NCBI GenBank assembly: GCA_002726235.1
Contig: PBSN01000008.1
Span: forward strand, 510,635 to 561,780
Reading direction: 5' to 3'
Source of the DNA: Nitrospiraceae bacterium
GTDB taxonomy: Bacteria; Nitrospirota; Nitrospiria; Nitrospirales; UBA2166
Length of the DNA: 51,146 nucleotides
Shown: positions 26,023 to 35,450 of the stretch, in pieces
How the letters are laid out: the number at the start of each line of letters is the position of its first letter
Numbering within the stretch: position 1 is the stretch's first letter
Translations under genes and position numbers: made by a program
Notes under the pieces: generated by a model
What the model was told of the DNA's origin: nothing
Seen by the model: the letters and a program-made list of their open reading frames with translations, nothing else
Database searches by the model: none

Positions 26023-28941
26023 TTGAGGTCACGTACTCAATACAGGATGAGAGATCCTATTGCTCCAAAATTAACCCTCTGCCCTGGGTGGAAAGGTGTT
26101 CAGGAATATCTGCTAAACTTCCTCACCAGAACACTCACACGGAGTCCGCTTGCCATCCGCAATATCCTTGTCCTTGTTCCAACCTCTGCGTCAAAACACG
26201 TACTTGAACTTACCTTAGAACACGATCTACTGAAGAACCGTGCCGCGACAATTCTTCCATCCATCTCCACGACCCATGTGTTTCTCGAGGATATGGCAAA
26301 GCGTTCTTTAGGAAAGATCACGATCATTGACCCACTGTTACGCCAGGCTATTTTATTAAAAGCCACTGAGGACGCTACGGAGGCAGGGTTTCCACCTCCG
26401 TTTCTCATTCGCGGCGGATTATTACACCGAATTCTCGCGCTATACGACCATATGTACCTAACAGGTCACAATCTCCAGGTATTTGCTCAACGAGCCTTTG
26501 ATGAATTCAATGTTCAAGATGATATCGGTGCTGAACAAATGGCCCAACAAACACGTTTCCTCGTTGAGAGTTTTACACGGTATCGCACACACCTGACATC
26601 ACTCCACCTAGATGATACCTCCACGTTACATCAATCACTTCTCGAACACGGCGTGAGCAGCCCTTGCTCCCATATTTTCGTTCTAGGCCCAGAGACAGTG
26701 TGTCCAAGCGACCTTGCCTATCTTACGGCAGCACCTGCAGTTGAAACTGTCGAAATTATTGTCCCGACAACCATGGGGGAAATTTCTTCACTGCGCAACT
26801 TGATCAGCAAGAACACGTTGACCATGACTTATCCGAAAATCTCCACTCCACCTCCGATACTTTTTACACCTGAAGAAAATCACGAGAGGGTATTTACTGC
26901 CCGGGACCGCGAAGAAGTTTTGATCTCAATCACTAAACTGCTTAAATTATTCGCGCAAAAAGGGACGTTGCCGGAGATCCACCGTATTGCAGTGGTCGTA
27001 CCAAGCCCACTCCCATATCTCTACCTTGCAAAACAAGTGTTTGAGCAAGCCGGCATTCCCTATCAAATGCAAGATGATTTTCCATTGGCCACTGAGCCAT
27101 ACCTCGCCGCAATTGATCTTGTTTTCGATTTCATTGAACGTACAACGGAGCACTCACCCAGTTTCCAGCTCCTTCGCAACCCGTTTTTTTACTTTCATGG
27201 AATTGACGACACTGCACTTCTTGCCCTGGAATCAGAACTCCAAACACGCAAAAATATTCACGGCACTGAGGCATGGATGCGGATACGCAAAAGCTCAAGA
27301 CGGCAACCCATTCAGCTTTCAATTCCAGCTGTTGGAGCTAAAAACCATTCCTCTTTGCTACTAAGCGTACTAGAGACACTGCACACCATGGAAGAAATGC
27401 TCACGCCATTGGCCAATCCAATCACGTCAATGACAAAAAAGATCAACTGCATTCGAAACTTTCTCAACCGATATGAACGGACACTAGGCTCTCACGACGA
27501 TGGCACCCGTCATAATCGTGCGAAGGGCGCATTGCTGGCCATACTGCAACAACTCGAGAATGTTGAAAGTGTTCTTGGCGAATCACCGGTTGAGTTCCAT
27601 ACCTTCAAAAAAACACTGCACCTTGCTGTCCAATCACATACATTTTCCCGACGCACTGGAGACAACGGCATTCACATTATCGATGCACGATCAGCGACCG
27701 TTGGAGCGTTCGACCTCGTCATTATGGTTGGTTTGAATGAAGGAGAATGGCCTGCTAGAAAAGATCATAATATTTTCTATCCAGAATGGCTTCTTCAAGA
27801 CTTCGGATGGCCATCTGATGCTGAAGCTCTCTACGCAGAACGAGTCGCATTTAAAGAATTGTCACAACTCTCTCGACGTCATGTCGCGGTCTTTCGTCAC
27901 CAGCTTGAGGAAGATGTTCCAACTGTAGCCTCTCTCTTCCTCGATGAAATTGCTGAGATAAGTGCCACCATGCAATACATTTCAGAACAAGACATGACCG
28001 CATATGTTACATCCCGCAATCACGCCTTACGGTTTGGCCTTCTTCAATCTGACCGAATCGTCCCAAAACGACCAACCCCAGGAATACTCGAACACACGGT
28101 TTCAAACCTTGAACCGATTTCTGCCACTGCCTTTGAACGCTATCTCCGTTGCCCCTTCATCTACTATGCCAACGACATCCTCCACGTCAACGAGGAGGAG
28201 GAGATACGCACGGGTCTCAGCCCGCGCCGACAAGGACAAATTGTACATGAGGTTTTAAAAGATGGATTTCAGCAATGGGACACAACAACCACTTTGCCGC
28301 AACCAATTACGGAAGAGAATTATGCCGCAGCTATTTCTATCTTTACGCGAATTGCAAAAGAGAAACTTCCGCGCAGATACCAGAAAATTGAACTGGCCCG
28401 TCTCTTCGGTGGCCCTGGCCACGTTGGTACCATTGAATGGATTCTTCGCCAGGAGATAGCAAGAGAACCGATAGCCAAGCGCTTAGTTGAACATTCTTTT
28501 CGAACAAATCTTCGTCTTGAGCATGGTCCGAATGGCGAATCTCCATGGCATATCGACATCAAAGGCCGTGCAGATCGTGTTGACATCGACCTAGAGAGGG
28601 GAATCCACGTGTTTGACTATAAAACTGGGAAGACTCCAGAATCGAAAATAACATTGCAGGTCTCCCTATATGCCATGTGCCTCGCCCAAGATTTTTCTGC
28701 TGAAACGACCAAAGCTACCTATCTCAGCCTTCGCGATCGCAAAGCCGCCAGTCGAGAGGACTACGAAAAAACAGCGACGCAATTACGCGAGATCTACCTC
28801 CGCATCTCTGAAGGCCATTTTCCTCCACGACCATATCAGAATCATATCTGCACGAGTTGTGGATATATAGGACTCTGCCGCAAAGAAATTACTGAGGCCG
28901 CACTGACGATGGAAATGCAAGACGCCAACACAATGTCATGA
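26023..28941 (+). CDS. AddB-like PD-(D/E)XK nuclease subunit (start may be 26047)
   Basis: Degenerate helicase-like N-terminus, GLNEGEWP, C-terminal GRADRVD...DYKTG...LQVSLY; four Cys (YLRCPF and CTSCGYIGLC) matching the AddB Fe-S staple. Confidence 0.85.
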   Translation: MRSRTQYRMRDPIAPKLTLCPGWKGVQEYLLNFLTRTLTRSPLAIRNILVLVPTSASKHVLELTLEHDLLKNRAATILPSISTTHVFLEDMAKRSLGKITIIDPLLRQAILLKATEDATEAGFPPPFLIRGGLLHRILALYDHMYLTGHNLQVFAQRAFDEFNVQDDIGAEQMAQQTRFLVESFTRYRTHLTSLHLDDTSTLHQSLLEHGVSSPCSHIFVLGPETVCPSDLAYLTAAPAVETVEIIVPTTMGEISSLRNLISKNTLTMTYPKISTPPPILFTPEENHERVFTARDREEVLISITKLLKLFAQKGTLPEIHRIAVVVPSPLPYLYLAKQVFEQAGIPYQMQDDFPLATEPYLAAIDLVFDFIERTTEHSPSFQLLRNPFFYFHGIDDTALLALESELQTRKNIHGTEAWMRIRKSSRRQPIQLSIPAVGAKNHSSLLLSVLETLHTMEEMLTPLANPITSMTKKINCIRNFLNRYERTLGSHDDGTRHNRAKGALLAILQQLENVESVLGESPVEFHTFKKTLHLAVQSHTFSRRTGDNGIHIIDARSATVGAFDLVIMVGLNEGEWPARKDHNIFYPEWLLQDFGWPSDAEALYAERVAFKELSQLSRRHVAVFRHQLEEDVPTVASLFLDEIAEISATMQYISEQDMTAYVTSRNHALRFGLLQSDRIVPKRPTPGILEHTVSNLEPISATAFERYLRCPFIYYANDILHVNEEEEIRTGLSPRRQGQIVHEVLKDGFQQWDTTTTLPQPITEENYAAAISIFTRIAKEKLPRRYQKIELARLFGGPGHVGTIEWILRQEIAREPIAKRLVEHSFRTNLRLEHGPNGESPWHIDIKGRADRVDIDLERGIHVFDYKTGKTPESKITLQVSLYAMCLAQDFSAETTKATYLSLRDRKAASREDYEKTATQLREIYLRISEGHFPPRPYQNHICTSCGYIGLCRKEITEAALTMEMQDANTMS

Positions 28942-31900
28942 TGACCGTGACTCTCCCACAAGACCATCAAGCCAGAGAAAACGCCAGTGACCCTCGGTTT
29001 AATGTCACCTTGGAAGCCTCAGCTGGGACAGGAAAAACACGTGTTCTCGTCGATCGTTATATCCGACTCATTGAGGCGGGAGCAGCACCTCGAAACATCC
29101 TAGCTATTACCTTTACGCGCAAAGCAGCCAGCGAGATGAAGCATCGCATTATCCAAGAATTGCACCGACGAAGCATGTTATGGCAAGAGATTAGGGATCG
29201 ACTGTTCGAGGTACATATCGTCACCATGGATGCCTTTTGCCTTAGCCTGCTCAAAGAGTTTCCACTGGAGGCCAACCTCGAGCCAGACATGGACCTCTTA
29301 AGTGATGTCGAACTTCATCGTCTTCTGGAAGAATCTGTAGAACAGGGTCTAAGCGATCATGGAAACTACCCGACCTCAGATCTCAAGTTTCTTGCTTCCC
29401 GTTTTGGAGAGACGACTCTCCGCCGTGGCATGCGCAACTTTATCCGAAGTCGCCTAGTCATGAGTCCATTGCTTAATCGTTTCGTAAATCAACGAGTACC
29501 CCACACACTTCAACTCAGCCACGTATTGAGAAAGGCGTCAACGGGTCTGCGGAAAGCCATGAGAAACTATCAGTGGGGAACCATGCCAACATCAATACGG
29601 CGTATCATGGGCTCCAATCCAGTCACACCGTTCGATCTCGAACAAGTTGCATCATACTTTCTAACCCAAGATGGAAAGTCTCGGAAGAGACTCTCTAGCG
29701 CATGTCGCCAAGCAGATTTCACTACCCGCGCCGAATATGACCAGCACCGCTCGCAGGTTATCGATATTGCACCAGTTGTTGCGGAACACATTCAGCGATG
29801 GCGTCATGATATCAATCTTTATGCGATCCAAGAGATATGGACGCTTTATCAATCGGCCACACGACATTTCATCTCACTTAAGGAGGAACGCGGCGGTCTT
29901 GATTTTTCTGACATCGTTCAGCATGCCGTCACTCTGCTAAAGAAACGAGGAATCTTTTCGCAAAGCCGCTTTCGATTGGAGGCACGCTATCATCATCTCC
30001 TCATCGACGAATTCCAGGATACCAACGAGATGCAATGGTCGCTAATTCAAAGTCTTATCGATTCATGGGGAGAGGGGGAAGGGTTGGTACAAGATACCAT
30101 TGCTAGAGCACAGGCCTCCGGTCGAGGGAAAGGGCTACTTCAAGAACCGAGCATATTCCTCGTTGGAGACCGGAAACAATCCGTCTATGGATGGCGAGAT
30201 GCGCGTGTCGAAGTGATGAATACTGCGACAAAATATCTCATGAACATTCGCCCAAACGGCGGTCGGCAATTACACATCAGGCAGAGTTTTCGAGCTCATG
30301 CTCCCCTGCTTGGATTTCTCAATGACGTGTTTTCTGGAGTCCCAAAAGAAAGCGAAGACGTGAGCTGGGCCTTCCGATACCGCAAGAGTGACCATTTTCC
30401 AATTCTTAAGTCTGACAACCATGATCATGCAGTTGGACTCGCCATCGCCCCAACGCGAACTCATGCCGCAGCGGCTGTCGGCGACGAAATTGTTCGTTTA
30501 CTACAGGAGAACAACTACCAATTGAAAGACATTGCCATCTGTTTTCGAAGTCGTACCCACTATCGCATCTACGAAGACGCGTTAGTCCAACGCGGAGTCC
30601 CGACCTATGTCTATCGCGGACTTGGGTTTTACGATTCACCAGAGGTCCGTGATATTCAGGCTATCATACGCTATCTTGCTAATCCAATTTCCGAACTTTG
30701 CGCGGCCGAAGTCCTGCGTTCACGTTTTATTGGATTCTCGGATACGGGTCTGTCACTCATCACAAAGGACCACCGAAAACGTGTCACGGCAACCCCATTG
30801 ATCCAGCTTCTGAAACACGCCATCCCACAAGAACAGCTACCACGTACAATCTCTCCCGAAGATCAAGCTATCATAACTAACATCCTTCCCAAAGTTCCAA
30901 AGTGGCTCGACATTGCCGACCGAATTCCACCATCAGACCTCTTGCAACGCATCATTGAAGAGACCGACTACGCCGCATGTTTTAGCGGCCGTAACGGCAT
31001 TCAAGGATGGGAAAATCTTAAAAAAGTGCTAGAGCGCATACGGCGTGCTCAAAACCGCGGCTATATGACCTTTGCTCGTCTCACGGAATATGTTGACCAC
31101 GCCTCCGCAGGCGAAGAGTCCCTCGCAACACTTGAAGCCATAGATGCGGTCAGTCTCATGACTATCCATGCTTCAAAAGGCTTGGAGTTCAAAGCCGTAT
31201 TCGTCGTAAATATGGATCAAACACTCCACGCAGATACTTCGCTCCCACGCATCAAAGAGCATGCCGATGGGAGTATTGATATATATGCAACGGAGAAAGC
31301 CAAGACCAGAAGCCCTGATCGTACACTAGAGGAAGAGAAACGCCTTTTGTATGTCGCGTTCACGCGTGCTAAAAACTATCTCGTTCTCTCCTCACTCGAT
31401 CCAAAACACAACGAACGCCATGCAACATTCAACAATCTCCTTCCGAAAAGCCTTCGAGAACTCCTTCCTGCCGCTACAACGACCGATGCTCCGGAACTGA
31501 CTTGGACACCCGCAGATAACAAGCATCGGTTGCGTGTTGTCCGTGCGATGTCTTCCCCCAGACATTATTACAATACAAAAACGACCCCGGCATATACACT
31601 TGCCATTGAGCCACTACCGCATCAAACTACCTCAAGAGTGACGACAAACCATCAAGTCACAGAGTCGTCTAACGACAACAGGAACAATCAGAACTCGCAA
31701 TCACTTAGTAGAAAAATAGGAAGAACCGTACATCAACTATTTGAATACGCAGTCTCGATAAACGAAAAGTTAGAGCAAATCGCTGACGCACTGCTTTCGA
31801 AGTGCCCTGAACAGACACCAGTTGATCGTAAAAAAACAATCAGGAAGGTTACAAGTTTCTATCGACAGCTTCACTCTCACCAGGAGCTTACTCGACTTCT

Positions 31901-32156
31901 CCAAAATGGGAAGGTCGAACGAGAAGTCCCCTTTGTACTCATTCGAGAAAATCAGAGAATCCGAGGAATCATTGATAGCCTAATTCTTCTGCAAGACCGT
32001 GCCATCGTTATCGACTACAAAACAGGACAACCGTCTGAGAACCATCAACTGCAGATGGGAATCTATCTTGAAGCCACTCGAACACTATTTCCAAAACACG
32101 AGATCGAAGGACTCATCTTTTATCCCGATGGAACACCTCACAGATATTCGTTGTAA
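28938..32156 (+). CDS. AddA-like UvrD/SF1 helicase-nuclease
   Basis: ASAGTGKT, TFTRKAA.EM, DEFQDT, VGDRKQSVY, MTIHASKGLEF, EEKRLLYVAFTRA; C-terminal GIID...DYKTG...Q..IY. Confidence 0.92.
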   Translation: MMTVTLPQDHQARENASDPRFNVTLEASAGTGKTRVLVDRYIRLIEAGAAPRNILAITFTRKAASEMKHRIIQELHRRSMLWQEIRDRLFEVHIVTMDAFCLSLLKEFPLEANLEPDMDLLSDVELHRLLEESVEQGLSDHGNYPTSDLKFLASRFGETTLRRGMRNFIRSRLVMSPLLNRFVNQRVPHTLQLSHVLRKASTGLRKAMRNYQWGTMPTSIRRIMGSNPVTPFDLEQVASYFLTQDGKSRKRLSSACRQADFTTRAEYDQHRSQVIDIAPVVAEHIQRWRHDINLYAIQEIWTLYQSATRHFISLKEERGGLDFSDIVQHAVTLLKKRGIFSQSRFRLEARYHHLLIDEFQDTNEMQWSLIQSLIDSWGEGEGLVQDTIARAQASGRGKGLLQEPSIFLVGDRKQSVYGWRDARVEVMNTATKYLMNIRPNGGRQLHIRQSFRAHAPLLGFLNDVFSGVPKESEDVSWAFRYRKSDHFPILKSDNHDHAVGLAIAPTRTHAAAAVGDEIVRLLQENNYQLKDIAICFRSRTHYRIYEDALVQRGVPTYVYRGLGFYDSPEVRDIQAIIRYLANPISELCAAEVLRSRFIGFSDTGLSLITKDHRKRVTATPLIQLLKHAIPQEQLPRTISPEDQAIITNILPKVPKWLDIADRIPPSDLLQRIIEETDYAACFSGRNGIQGWENLKKVLERIRRAQNRGYMTFARLTEYVDHASAGEESLATLEAIDAVSLMTIHASKGLEFKAVFVVNMDQTLHADTSLPRIKEHADGSIDIYATEKAKTRSPDRTLEEEKRLLYVAFTRAKNYLVLSSLDPKHNERHATFNNLLPKSLRELLPAATTTDAPELTWTPADNKHRLRVVRAMSSPRHYYNTKTTPAYTLAIEPLPHQTTSRVTTNHQVTESSNDNRNNQNSQSLSRKIGRTVHQLFEYAVSINEKLEQIADALLSKCPEQTPVDRKKTIRKVTSFYRQLHSHQELTRLLQNGKVEREVPFVLIRENQRIRGIIDSLILLQDRAIVIDYKTGQPSENHQLQMGIYLEATRTLFPKHEIEGLIFYPDGTPHRYSL

Positions 32157-32173
32157 GACACGTGGAGACACTA

Positions 32174-32656
32174 TCATGGTCTATGCTCAAGCTGTGATAT
32201 GACAAGAACCCCGATATTAAACTGATCGTCGTATCTCAGAATCATGTGAGTATGCGTCCCAACCCACAACACATCGTGAGAAAACCGGCTCTCATCGCGC
32301 CCTGATCCAAAACGAGACGTCAACGCACTCAGCAAGCCATCGTAGTTTTCTCCATCACGATATTTGATTGTTACACGTTTAAACTTGTCCCCTTCAAATG
32401 AATATAGAATTTTCTCAACATTAATATCGCCAAAAGTTAAAGGTTCGTTTGGAAAATAATAAGTTTTTGATCCTGATGGATCATCAGACTCGCCCCACAG
32501 CACAAGACCATCAAATTCTACGACATTCGCATCCCAGGAATATCCTTTAAAGCCATTAGGGTCATTCTCAAATACCCCATCAGCTGCAGGCACTTCTGAT
32601 GGCAGAAGGAACACCGCAAACCCAATGAGAATGTACAGAGTATAAAATCGATTCAT
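32174..32656 (-). CDS. Hypothetical secreted protein
   Basis: Signal peptide from ATG 32656 (MNRFYTLYILIGFAVFLLPSEVPA); NDPNGFKGYSW N-terminal motif. Confidence 0.7.
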   Translation of the reverse strand: MNRFYTLYILIGFAVFLLPSEVPAADGVFENDPNGFKGYSWDANVVEFDGLVLWGESDDPSGSKTYYFPNEPLTFGDINVEKILYSFEGDKFKRVTIKYRDGENYDGLLSALTSRFGSGRDESRFSHDVLWVGTHTHMILRYDDQFNIGVLVISQLEHRP

Positions 32657-32974
32657 AGTTGGTGATCCAAAGTTGACTTCGCGTATTGCTCCACATCCGA
32701 ATCCAAATCCACTCAATACACAAACCTCCACCATGGCAAAGGTTGAACGAAGCAAAGTAAGAATTTAAAAAAAACTGTTTTGGTACGGAGTGCTCCTATT
32801 TCTCAGTACATATCACCTTACATTTTTGGATTATACAAACTTTTGATCAGACGCTCAGCAAGTCATCCGTGAAAGATTAAACATTTACAACTTTAGATTT
32901 GCCGGAGGACAGATGTTATCAGGCTGGACAGAATTGCTGAATTTTAAAATCCCACGACTCCATCCAGTGTCCCA

Positions 32975-32985
32975 TGTGCTACAAT
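32975..32985 (+). promoter_or_regulatory. Extended -10 sigma70-type promoter element TGTG-C-TACAAT
   Basis: TGn plus 5/6 match to TATAAT, directly upstream of the structured GC-rich element. Confidence 0.55.
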
Positions 32986-33134
32986 CGTCGAAATTTAGGG
33001 GATCACTCATCTCCGAGTCTTCCGATAGGAGGGAGGCGTCCCATGCGCTAACCGACGGCGGGTTGGCCCGTGGGTTCACGCAAGGTCTGGGCCGGCGTGA
33101 CGCAATGCATCGCCGATTGGAAGGAGGTGATCCG

Positions 33135-33185
33135 ATGGGAAGTGATAGTAGTAACCCTGCGGCGAGTGAGGTGGCAACGTTCTAG
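33135..33185 (+). CDS. 16-aa small ORF MGSDSSNPAASEVATF
   Basis: Preceded by AAGGAGGTGATCC (33121-33133), with GGAGG 7 nt before the ATG. Confidence 0.5.
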   Translation: MGSDSSNPAASEVATF

Positions 33186-33235
33186 CCGCACACCTTTTTC
33201 TTCGGTGATCCCTGGGACGTATTCCCAGCGCCACC

Positions 33236-33299
33236 GGCCCGGAAGCGCGGGTGCCGGAGCCGCATTTGGATTTTCGGATCTGCTTCCGGGCTCTTTTTT
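33236..33299 (+). terminator. Intrinsic terminator-like structure
   Basis: GGCCCGGAAGC (33236-33246) pairs with GCTTCCGGGCT (33282-33292) around a structured loop, followed by CTTTTTT. Confidence 0.6.
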
Positions 33300-33359
33300 G
33301 CCTAATTCCAGTCTGCAAGGCACGCAAGCAAGGCAGTTAACACCGCCATAGCGTAAAGC

Positions 33360-35405
33360 CTAATCTTCCTCAGCTTTTGGCTTATACTGATCGATAATCT
33401 CTTGCTGAATGTTTGGTGGCACAACATCGTAGTGGCTAAGTTGCATAGTGTACGACCCTTGCCCCGCTGTCACTGCTTTCAGTTGAGATTGATATTGCCC
33501 CAATTCCGCCAAAGGCGCTTGTGCACTAATGTGGAGCATCCCACCAGGTAATGTATCGGAGCCCTGAAGACGCCCTCGCTTACTCGACAAATCCCCAGCG
33601 ATATCCCCCATATTTCCTTCTGGCACAATAATATCCATCTGGACAACCGGCTCGAGAATAACTGGCTTCGCTTTATGAATCGCATCAATCAACGCTTTCT
33701 TCGACGCAGCAACAAACGCAACCTCTTTGCTATCGACAGGATGATGTTTCCCGTCATATACACTCACTTTAATATCCTGTAACGGATATCCAGCAATGGC
33801 ACCTTGCTCCATCACTAGTCGAACACCTTTCTCAACTGCCGGAATAAACTGCCGCGGAATTGACCCTCCAAAAGTATTATTAGCAAACTCGAATCCACCA
33901 CCACGCTCCTGTGGAGCAATCCGCAAAAAAACTTCTCCAAACTGACCAGCACCCCCGGTTTGCTTTCTATGCCGATGATGTCCCTCTGCATTTCCAGTGA
34001 TGGTTTCCTTGTAAGCAATCTTCGGCGGATGAGTATCAACCTCTACGTTGTACCGGTTCTTCATTTTTTTGAGAATCACTCGCAAATGCATATCACCAAG
34101 CCCGTAGATGACAGTTTCACTCGTCGTTACATTGCGTTCAATGGTAAAGCAAGGGTCTTCGGCTTCCATACTGACCAATGCTTTCCCAATCTTTTGTTCA
34201 TCACCACGACTTTTTGCCTCAATGGCAAAACCGTTCATTGGCTGGGGAAAGTCCATCGGCTTTAATCTCACATCACCATCATCAATTTTGTCTCGCAACA
34301 CAGCATCAAATCGAATTTCATCGATCTTCGCCACGGCACAAATATCTCCAGGAATGCCCGTATCGACTTCAGCATGTTCTTTCCCCTGTAAACGCAGCAA
34401 ATGCCCTACCTTAAACGTCTTTCTCTCATCCCCAAGATGAAGCTGACTGTCCTTTTTGACCGTCCCTTGAAAAATTCGGAATACTCCAAGTTTTCCGATA
34501 AAAGGATCTGCGGTAACTTTGAATACATACGCCACAATCGACTTCGAGGGATCTGGCGTAATTTCCACTTCCTCACTATCTTCACCCTGGCCCTTGCGAA
34601 ACTCTTGCGCATTCCCTTCAGTTGGATTTGGCATCATATGTGAAAATATCTCCAATAACTCCCGCACCCCAACACCTTGCCGCGCCGATACGAAGCAAAT
34701 AGGAACTAGATGCCCGTCCTTTAACGCATTTGTAAACGGCGTATGGAGCTGTTCAGGACTCACCTCCCCTTTATCAAGGTAAGTCGTCATGAGATCCTCA
34801 TCCATTTCCACAACTTGCTCGACAATGGCTGTGTGCGCGTCAGTGGAAGATCCAAAGTCAACGTCCCCTTCCGCCTTATTAAAGACATCGACAACTGCAG
34901 ACCCTCCTCCACTGGGGAGGTTGATGGGAAGACACTCCTTGCCGAATAACTCCTGAATTTGGTCCACAACCTGCTCAAGATTAACCTCTTCTGCATCGAT
35001 TTTGTTCACAATAATTATGCGACACAGTTTCCTGTCAACAGCGCGTTCCATAACACGCCGCGCAACCATATCGACCCCATGTTGAGCCGTTATGACCACC
35101 GCGACAGTCTCGACTGCAGTAAGTGCTGAAAGCGCGTGGCCAGAAAACTCAATCATTCCTGGAGTATCGATGAGGTTAATATGGTGCCCAGCGTGATCAC
35201 AATTCACGATCGCGGAATTTAAGGAATGTTGATGCTCCTTCTCTTCCGGATCAAAATCACAAACGGTATTTTTCTTCTCAATTGATCCCAGGCTCTGGAT
35301 CATGCCTGTCTGATGCAGCAACGCCTCAACGAGAGTCGTCTTTCCAGCTGCACCCTGACCAACAAGTGCAATATTTCGAATATCTTGAGTCGTATAGCTC
35401 GGCAT
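33360..35405 (-). CDS. Elongation factor G paralogue (EF-G2/FusA2-like)
   Basis: IRNIALVG...GKTT, DTPG, NKID, GLGDMHL, KQTGGAGQFG, DGKHHPVDS; SD GGAGG before ATG 35405. Confidence 0.93.
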   Translation of the reverse strand: MPSYTTQDIRNIALVGQGAAGKTTLVEALLHQTGMIQSLGSIEKKNTVCDFDPEEKEHQHSLNSAIVNCDHAGHHINLIDTPGMIEFSGHALSALTAVETVAVVITAQHGVDMVARRVMERAVDRKLCRIIIVNKIDAEEVNLEQVVDQIQELFGKECLPINLPSGGGSAVVDVFNKAEGDVDFGSSTDAHTAIVEQVVEMDEDLMTTYLDKGEVSPEQLHTPFTNALKDGHLVPICFVSARQGVGVRELLEIFSHMMPNPTEGNAQEFRKGQGEDSEEVEITPDPSKSIVAYVFKVTADPFIGKLGVFRIFQGTVKKDSQLHLGDERKTFKVGHLLRLQGKEHAEVDTGIPGDICAVAKIDEIRFDAVLRDKIDDGDVRLKPMDFPQPMNGFAIEAKSRGDEQKIGKALVSMEAEDPCFTIERNVTTSETVIYGLGDMHLRVILKKMKNRYNVEVDTHPPKIAYKETITGNAEGHHRHRKQTGGAGQFGEVFLRIAPQERGGGFEFANNTFGGSIPRQFIPAVEKGVRLVMEQGAIAGYPLQDIKVSVYDGKHHPVDSKEVAFVAASKKALIDAIHKAKPVILEPVVQMDIIVPEGNMGDIAGDLSSKRGRLQGSDTLPGGMLHISAQAPLAELGQYQSQLKAVTAGQGSYTMQLSHYDVVPPNIQQEIIDQYKPKAEED

Positions 35406-35450
35406 GCTCAAACCTCCAGTTTTGTTCAATCTGCCATGACTACGCGAATG

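Follow-up and report, generated by a model that had tools for sequence, protein, structure and literature searches.

A conserved structured RNA with an extended Shine-Dalgarno sequence and a 16-codon open reading frame in a Nitrospiraceae bacterium: a candidate ribosome-docking micro-mRNA

What is the purpose of a gene whose Shine-Dalgarno (SD) sequence reaches far along the 3' end of 16S rRNA and whose open reading frame (ORF) has only 16 codons? The question is raised by a locus in a 51,146-nucleotide (nt) stretch of contig PBSN01000008.1, hereafter the window, from a Nitrospiraceae bacterium (source genome G000; 1.87-Mb assembly GCA_002726235.1). Small mRNAs with giant SD sequences have so far been described only for alpha-proteobacteria, where rreB and rreR ("ribosome-regulated expression") are stand-alone genes (Hahn et al., RNA Biol 2017, PMC5711450). 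The rreB RNA (165 nt) carries 17 perfect nt complementary to 16S rRNA and a GTG start codon for a 14-residue product (18 residues in rreR); it co-sediments with 30S subunits, is weakly translated and is stabilized upon removal of the start codon, and rreB-egfp fusions are translated (PMC5711450). An earlier note on the window, made from the sequence alone, had taken the locus for an undescribed RNA. That label has to be withdrawn, since the kind was described in 2016/17 (rreB/rreR) and the locus is also a remote relative of RF02471 (Ms_IGR-5), which Rfam lists as an actinobacterial small RNA (sRNA); the accessible part of the entry apparently does not mention an ORF. Here we report that positions 32992-33299 of the window encode a real, discrete, conserved and structured RNA of expressed appearance that is present in environmental RNA libraries. 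We propose that it is probably a ribosome-docking micro-mRNA, with an internal anti-SD mimic as the competitor of 16S rRNA.

The SD block precedes an ATG at 33135, which lies 7 nt after GGAGG (feature coordinates are collected in Table 1). When positions 33119-33134 were compared with the 16S 3' end CUGGAUCACCUCCUUUCU, as read in four genomes of the same class, all 16 positions paired: 14 by Watson-Crick pairs, 13 of them contiguous (AAGGAGGTGATCC, 33121-33133), and two by G.U pairs. The 13-nt complement that the earlier note had matched to the conserved 16S end therefore holds against the 16S end of four class relatives, and the block as written can pair with essentially the whole single-stranded 16S 3' tail. 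The sole 16S gene piece in the source assembly is a 5' half at a contig end (C1:32-832). The 12-mer AGGAGGTGATCC is found once in the assembly. A AGGAGGTGRTCC-like block is present at 33 of 33 class loci, the start codon always following 7 nt later (GGAGG to start), and in the class relative L148 the complementarity extends to 18 pairs, one of them G.U.

The RNA has the outline of an independent transcription unit. The extended -10 box, the roughly 300 nt of GC-rich hairpins and the terminator seen by the earlier note are all in place. A simple -35/-10 consensus scan found no full sigma-70 promoter, so the promoter call is based on the extended -10 box, and in class relatives TGTGnTATAnT-like boxes lie about 10 nt ahead of the first hairpin. 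GC content is 0.56-0.60 over 32900-33299 versus 0.35-0.41 immediately upstream. At the 3' end, a terminator-like hairpin (33273-33290) with its T-run forms part of a complete stem at 33236-33292. Metatranscriptome contigs from four runs (X15-X18; three studies) were compared with window positions 32500-33800: 12 of 13 contig pieces fall inside 32999-33299, none in 32500-32998, and one, with a depth of 4, in the downstream gene for an EF-G family protein. In run X15 the RNA piece has a depth of 62 versus 4 for the EF-G gene piece. Of the query words, runs X18-X20 contain a small share each. The contigs begin at 32999-33004, and we regard them as supportive, not decisive, for transcription. Metagenomes whose DNA carries the element are labelled marine and hydrothermal vent.

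Covariation within the class supports a fold for this RNA. The 308-nt RNA has a minimum free energy (MFE) of -134.8 kcal/mol (z = -2.52), and none of 100 shuffled sequences folds equally well. In alignment A6 (26 full-length class sequences; 71 pairs in 14 helices tested), 95.8% of cells are paired versus 38.9-51.2% with slid partners, 25 of the 71 pairs show compensatory changes versus 7-13 in the slid controls, and the covariation score is 0.280 versus 0.06-0.09; none of 500 shuffles matches the observed values. Most of the covariation sits in four 5' hairpins, P1-P4, a conserved stretch of about 125 nt that separates the SD block from the promoter box. The P1 loop reaches out of this domain: its CACU (33004-33007) is complementary to AGUG at 33165-33168 inside the ORF, 97.1% of cells being paired and the variable pair being UA in 18 sequences, AU in 5 and mismatched in 3.

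These hairpins account for two elements that had been given another role. The earlier note counted two strong ribosome-binding sites; the one before the 16-codon ORF, AAGGAGGTGATCC, stands, and the other, AGGAGGGAGG at 33028-33037, is the 3' strand of the covarying hairpin P2. The Met-Arg-stop ORF assigned to the latter (ATG-CGC-TAA, 33043-33051) lies in hairpin P3 and is not conserved, having been lost in the congener G001 (ACG CGT TGG). A two-conformer model was also proposed, in which a 5' GGATCAC would pair either with the SD block or with the repeated motif GTGATCCCT at 33205; GGATCAC is not kept in G004 (GGGGGTGC), and the conformers are therefore not conserved.

Is the product of the locus a peptide? 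A cross-phylum search that required two motifs and left start codon, frame and stop codon free gave 127 loci among the matches listed, and the counts below for listed loci refer to such matches. At all 127 there is an in-frame start 7-14 nt after GGAGG (TTG 84, ATG 28, GTG 15), an ORF of 11-17 codons, and a stop exactly 15 nt past the GAG of GAGGUGG (TAG 112, TGA 10, TAA 5). Of the 33 class loci, 29 begin with GTG, and the 4 from the genus of G000 begin with ATG; the stop keeps its distance of 15 nt in 32. The sole class locus without that stop, L162 (genome G473), reads on for 8 codons to a total of 22 (MGSTNPTASEVAASRLTRHSTR). In 77 unique listed ORFs of 12 codons, the entropy by codon position is 0.72/0.61/0.72, with no third-position excess; codons 2-4 are free, and codons 5 (W/R) and 7 (C/R/S) switch by first-base changes. 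Codon 7 covaries at its first base with a 5' CACN element, 91 of 112 listed loci being paired versus 74.2 expected (A:U 52, G:C 28, G.U 10), a count that relatedness among the loci inflates; the CACN element is located immediately ahead of the SD in short forms of the RNA and in the P1 loop in long forms. Across phyla, start, stop and frame are thus conserved at the listed loci and the amino acids are not, the residues seeming to follow RNA pairing.

A gene for a functional 16-residue micro-peptide, with RNA structure only tuning its expression, would account for the start, stop and frame kept at 127 of 127 listed loci and 32 of 33 class loci, for the near constancy of the product within the class (MGSTNPTASEVAAS at many loci), and for a C-terminal E-V-A-x-x that is universal among the loci listed. 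We consider it unlikely. The codon-position entropies, the free codons 2-4 and the first-base switches at codons 5 and 7 speak against selection on the residues, as does the covariation of codon 7 with its RNA partner; the universal E-V-A falls on an invariant RNA motif, GAGGUGGC, the pairing partner of GCCACC; the ORF varies between 11 and 17 codons; and synthetic RreB and RreR peptides are unstructured (PMC5711450).

The opposite reading, a purely non-coding RNA whose ORF is a by-product of RNA motifs, draws on the extensive covarying 5' domain and on conservation at the nucleotide rather than the codon level. Such an RNA could bind a protein or the ribosome, or act as a base-pairing sRNA whose C-rich CCACC and CACCUUUUUCU would mask the SD sequences of target mRNAs. 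Rfam lists Ms_IGR-5 as an sRNA, and 6S RNA was found nowhere in the source genome, an absence that means little because the 6S model detects only 5 of 14 control genomes. This reading is doubtful to us, because the listed loci use no stop codons but TAG, TGA and TAA and no start codons but TTG, ATG and GTG, and because ORF length is fixed while the spacing from SD to start varies from 7 to 14 nt. In addition, the accessible text of PMC4974804 gives ribosome-protected reads for Ms_IGR-5 homologues, and the rreB-egfp fusions are translated (PMC5711450).

The preferred reading, a micro-mRNA on which ribosomes dock, depends on how the SD block and the 3' half of the ORF are folded. In both the MFE and the centroid fold, the block pairs with the internal anti-SD mimic downstream of the ORF, and the SD has an unpaired probability of only 0.13 in the predicted equilibrium fold. 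Similar pyrimidine tracts occur in part of the class (L148, L151), with none in L142. The second arrangement is centred on the ORF, whose 3' half is a strand common to several helices: with the SD flank, with CACN (the P1 loop here), and with GCCACC before the terminator. In the last of these, long-range helix B, GGUGGC (33170-33175) is the 5' strand, and RNAalifold pairs it with GCCACC independently. Helix B is 97.3% paired in A6, with a seventh pair that is GC in 15 sequences and CG in 5. Its extension covaries in actinobacteria (CUGC/GCAG, CUAC/GUAG, CUCG/CGAG, CCGC/GCGG), and 9 of 9 pairs form at 102 of 147 listed loci versus 0.216 for random 4-mers against the same downstream sequence. 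A hub fold forced to contain CGCCG (33111-33115) paired with CGGCG (33160-33164) plus helix B has -121.1 kcal/mol and so costs 13.7 kcal/mol over the MFE, with the P1-loop pseudoknot uncounted; it leaves most of the SD single-stranded, and GGAAG and UCC form a short hairpin. The CUGGGA strand behind the mimic, hairpinned in the predicted fold, has an alternative pairing with the last ORF codons that covaries (GC:6, AU:3). In place of the GGATCAC conformers, these data support another pair of competing folds, one with the SD paired to the internal mimic and one with an ORF-centred helix hub.

Copies of CGGCG/CGGUG are seen at 33054-33060 (P3 loop), 33160-33164 (ORF) and 33203-33207 (behind the ORF), each of which could pair with the single CGCCG at 33111-33115. 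All three are conserved in the class, and they hint at a possible multi-state switch.

The earlier guess of a 30S-binding RNA or a tightly switched small-peptide mRNA fits the giant SD, the tiny in-frame ORF and the low accessibility of the SD. We suggest that the free RNA would be mainly in the closed fold, with the mimic covering the SD; a 30S subunit would compete with the mimic, dock very tightly and open the small hairpin that holds the start codon; and an occasional round of translation would traverse the helix hub and remodel the RNA. If rreB is a guide, this RNA might bind 30S subunits strongly, be translated weakly and be turned over in a ribosome-dependent way. It would then report on ribosome availability or be governed by it, and delivery of a peptide would not be its task.

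The element is single-copy in the source genome, and a repeat or mobile element was rejected on that account. By DNA similarity, it is found in four of four other genomes of the genus at 87-96% identity, with both flanks unalignable, and in none of 36 genomes from three other families of the order. R1, a covariance model built on the core, gave one match per genome in 36 of 151 class genomes. Counted by family with stricter filters, where absence means not found among the genomes searched, R1 matches occur in f5 (7/7), f11 (7/8), f12 (9/9), f47 (5/7), f8 (3/15), f7 (2/5), f10 (1/1) and f46 (1/2), and in 0/1 genomes of f4, a family of the source genome's order. The motif pair GGAAGGAGGTG ... 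GTGAGGTGG was found in 4 of 401 genomes sampled from the phylum, all four within the class. A slightly longer pattern gave at least 120 loci in species-representative genomes, most of those listed being from Actinomycetota (including Mycobacterium, Nocardia, Saccharothrix and Cellulomonas); the other listed metagenome-assembled genomes (MAGs) are titled Nitrospirae, Ca. Manganitrophaceae, Thermodesulfobacteriota, delta-proteobacteria, Ca. Binatia, Bryobacterales, Terriglobia and Acidobacteriota. Short forms, in actinobacteria and acidobacteria, start a few nt before the SD, and long forms with a 5' domain occur in the source class, delta-proteobacterial MAGs and Binatia. At L067, a MAG contig titled Gammaproteobacteria carries a mycobacterium-type copy (MVDLWTCEVAAS) and is probably mis-binned.

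A metagenome scan for GAAAGGAGGTGRTCCAGTG gave at least 120 loci, and 116 of the 117 ORFs readable to a stop have 10-30 codons. The listed small ORFs (L177-L296) fall into many unrelated peptide families behind the same SD and GTG, among them about 20 loci of rreB-like 14-mers (MS.xKRCHLAGIAR-like), 18-mers beginning MSRVILE.., and a large family of 21-25 residues beginning MSHC... Several of the listed micro-ORF families end in E-V-x-x-x-stop; GAGGT lies exactly 15 nt before the stop in 21 of 116 listed ORFs, its commonest position, and the exact GTGAGGTGG is present at 7 of 120 listed loci.

A number of observations pull the other way and keep our confidence in ribosome docking short of firm. 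The 16S 3' end of the source genome itself is unassembled (only model positions 9-800 are present), and that of its congeners is missing as well. The RNA contigs give neither strand nor exact ends, DNA carry-over could contribute to them, and several pieces derive from relatives at 90-95% identity, some running on into unlike sequence. The predicted fold hides the SD, so 30S docking may be rare. The ORF-region helices (7-9 of A6) are sequence-invariant and therefore give no covariation within the class; relatedness among the loci confounds the cross-phylum covariation tests, and alignment A7 had been fitted to our own model. Class members have much the same peptide (MGS.NPTA[SC]EVA..), and the peptide may therefore have a role. 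R1 matched 0/53 and 0/25 searched genomes of f2 and f3, two large families of the source genome's order. As to the rre parallel, 30S binding, weak translation and start-dependent decay were measured for rreB only; 20-fold overproduced 17c-rreB, which binds ribosomes, and strongly overproduced 14c-rreB gave no growth phenotype, and the function was called elusive (PMC5711450). Judged from the Table S2 oligo sequences only, the rreB ORF contains an anti-SD-like CACCUC and is without GAGGUGG. The internal partner therefore lies inside the ORF in rreB and downstream of it here, and kinship with rre is one of design rather than demonstrated homology.

Table 1. Features of the RNA and its signals in the window.
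Feature	Positions	Strand	Basis
Extended -10 box TGcTACAAT	32977..32985	+	read from sequence; promoter function inferred
Stand-alone transcript, ~300 nt	32992..33299	+	5' end inferred to within a few nt; 3' end = T-run
Hairpin P1, GGGGAU/AUCUCC, loop CACUC	32998..33014	+	MFE fold; stem covaries (helix 1)
Hairpin P2, 3' strand AGGAGGGAGG	33017..33037	+	helix 3: 7 pairs, 4 compensatory, 99.5% paired
Hairpin P3, conserved loop GACGGCG	33040..33074	+	helices 4, 5: compensatory changes in 9/9 pairs; CGGCG loop invariant
Hairpin P4, conserved loop UCUGG	33076..33100	+	helix 6: 3/5 pairs compensatory; MFE fold
Extended SD GGAAGGAGGUGAUCCG	33119..33134	+	16S complementarity; block kept in class
16-codon small ORF, peptide MGSDSSNPAASEVATF	33135..33185	+	ATG 33135 to TAG 33183-33185
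Internal SD-like GUGAGGUGGC	33166..33175	+	invariant motif
Putative internal anti-SD mimic CACCUUUUUCU + UCGGUGAU	33191..33209	+	MFE and centroid fold; pairs with SD 33119-33129 and flank 33109-33116
Hairpin CUGGGA/UCCCAG	33212..33228	+	predicted fold
GCCACC, helix B 3' strand	33230..33235	+	abuts terminator; helix 10 of A6
Branched intrinsic terminator and T-run	33236..33299	+	helices 12-14 of A6; fold; RNA contigs end at 33299

The neighbour on the 3' side raises one more alternative, namely that the RNA is a cis-acting leader (attenuator or riboswitch) of an adjacent gene such as the EF-G paralogue. That gene encodes a protein of 689 residues with all five EF-G domains (33360-35429, minus strand) and is, as previously noted, convergent to the RNA. 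A translation-related gene adjoining the RNA, and a structured 5' domain followed by an SD, would suit a leader, which we nevertheless hold to be very improbable: the EF-G gene is convergent, a terminator lies between, and no Rfam riboswitch matches. A model of the 5' domain (R2) found one copy per genome in three of three class genomes and none ahead of other genes; R2 missed the own 5' domains of delta-proteobacterial and Binatia genomes and is therefore too narrow to test these. Furthermore, the EF-G-side 3' flank is common to G001 and G004 and differs in G003 and in other families. Neighbours change from lineage to lineage (MTHFR, Maf/Dus, aminotransferase IV, ABC ATPase, L31 and TsaD), and no shared neighbour was found by Pfam among 75 flank ORFs from 23 loci. 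Because the neighbour varies between lineages, the adjacency of EF-G is probably not functional.

On the other side of the RNA, a divergent 193-codon ORF without a Pfam match is located at 32174-32755 (minus strand). It is preceded at 26023-32156 (plus strand) by two large genes resembling an AddB/AddA-type helicase-nuclease pair, the first with PD-(D/E)XK and Cas4-like domains and the second with a UvrD helicase and PD-(D/E)XK.

A same-design RNA (Ms_IGR-5 having the same motifs) recurs in MAGs labelled Actinomycetota, Acidobacteriota, Nitrospirae/Manganitrophaceae, Thermodesulfobacteriota/delta-proteobacteria and Binatia, and in the marine and hydrothermal-vent lineage studied here; the frame and the RNA pairing are conserved, rather than the peptide, which points to a widely distributed ribosome-coupled RNA device. 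If the RNA is such a device, it could help to explain how free 30S subunits are sensed or partitioned in bacteria. We tentatively raise the further possibility, more speculative than the docking proposal, that Ms_IGR-5, the long form and the E-V-x-x-x-stop small-ORF RNAs of Acidobacteriota, Nitrospirota-like, delta-proteobacterial and Binatia MAGs constitute one ancient cross-phylum family of ribosome-operated switches. In such a switch the 30S anti-SD would displace the mimic, translation of an ORF conserved in frame and free in sequence would melt the three-helix hub, and the SD-like GAGGUGG 15 nt ahead of the stop would re-capture the terminating ribosome, so that the RNA might measure or buffer initiation-competent ribosomes, with the 125-nt 5' domain perhaps a ligand or protein sensor gating docking. 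There is also a caution for annotation: the Ms_IGR-5 "sRNA" family carries a micro-ORF, with ribosome-protected reads in homologues according to the accessible portion of the source.

How does the window RNA compare with known RNAs? No Rfam family matched anywhere in the window at its gathering score, and ARAGORN found no genes in it. The earlier note had seen no likeness to transfer-messenger RNA (tmRNA), 6S RNA, RNase P RNA or signal recognition particle (SRP) RNA, and indeed none of these matches the window. As identities of the locus, tmRNA, RNase P and SRP RNA were rejected, also because they lie on other contigs of the genome (191, 309 and 64 bits). The note's suggested comparison with Rfam gave five weak matches below gathering, of which the best, and the sole one with E < 1, was RF02471 (window positions 33113-33299, 20.8 bits, E = 0.017; gathering score 45 bits). 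In control searches, six of six actinobacterial loci scored 57-185 bits against RF02471, above gathering; of 10 non-actinobacterial relatives, 6 match RF02471 only (24-35 bits, E up to 0.1) and 4 match nothing. Literature searches with the motifs and peptides found nothing relevant, those on rreB/rreR gave the original paper only, and those on small mRNAs with an extended SD added just a 2026 S. aureus paper; beyond Ms_IGR-5 and rre they yielded no other description. BLAST of the SD-ORF stretch against plasmids, aimed at a plasmid-borne Azospirillum rre gene, returned two chance-level matches only.

By its sequence and block order, the window RNA is remotely related to Ms_IGR-5 and falls outside the family by the Rfam cut-off. 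Both have the same order of blocks: GGAAGGAGGUG(R)UCC, a short ORF, GUGAGGUGGC, a stop 15 nt past GAG, a C-rich ..CACC block that folds back onto GGUGG.., and a terminator. In a separate test of block order against RF02471, the SD block, GUGAGGUGG, the C-rich ..CACC block and the terminator were found in turn, and the SD/GAGGUGG motif pair is shared by the source genome and at least 120 loci that are mostly actinobacterial among the matches listed. Both RNAs are stand-alone genes with variable neighbours. Homologues of Ms_IGR-5 have ribosome-protected reads in M. abscessus and M. smegmatis (accessible text of PMC4974804), and according to the accessible parts of other reports RNA-seq detected Ms_IGR-5 in Streptomyces lividans, and S. 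avermitilis has a transcription unit that matches it. The two differ in that the window RNA has a 125-nt four-hairpin domain before the SD, whereas the RF02471 model begins about 7 nt upstream of the SD and actinobacterial Ms_IGR-5 has its CACN 0-2 nt before the SD, right after a promoter-like box; the ORF has 16 codons here versus mostly 12 in Ms_IGR-5, and the start lies 7 nt versus 10-12 nt after GGAGG.

With the rre genes the window RNA shares its own (here predicted) promoter and terminator, an SD that, judged by the 16S end of class relatives, extends along the 16S tail and is partly placed in a hairpin, and a variable gene context (that of rre is not conserved outside its family). Its 16 codons fall within the 14-18 of rre small ORFs, and the start likewise lies 7 nt after AGGAGG. 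Class relatives also share the rre-type AGGAGGUG.UCCAG-UG arrangement with a GTG start, while the source genome uses ATG. The 5' domain is a difference, rreB being without one. Set beside the at least 16 nt of complementarity that define rre genes and the 17 perfect nt of rreB, the window RNA has 13 contiguous Watson-Crick pairs, or 16 positions with the two G.U pairs, against the 16S end of its class relatives.

Leader-peptide attenuators and regulatory upstream ORFs are a further known parallel: there, too, translation of a very short ORF counts for more than its product, and competing helices near a terminator are remodelled by the ribosome. Unlike leader-peptide attenuators, the window RNA has no sense-strand gene after its terminator and its neighbours are not conserved; any output would therefore have to act in trans or upon the RNA itself. 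Giant-SD small mRNAs as a kind (rreB/rreR) and Ms_IGR-5 as an Rfam entry were thus already known, and what is added here is the long form with its 125-nt 5' domain, the link across phyla, the conservation of frame rather than peptide, and the predicted ORF-centred helix hub.

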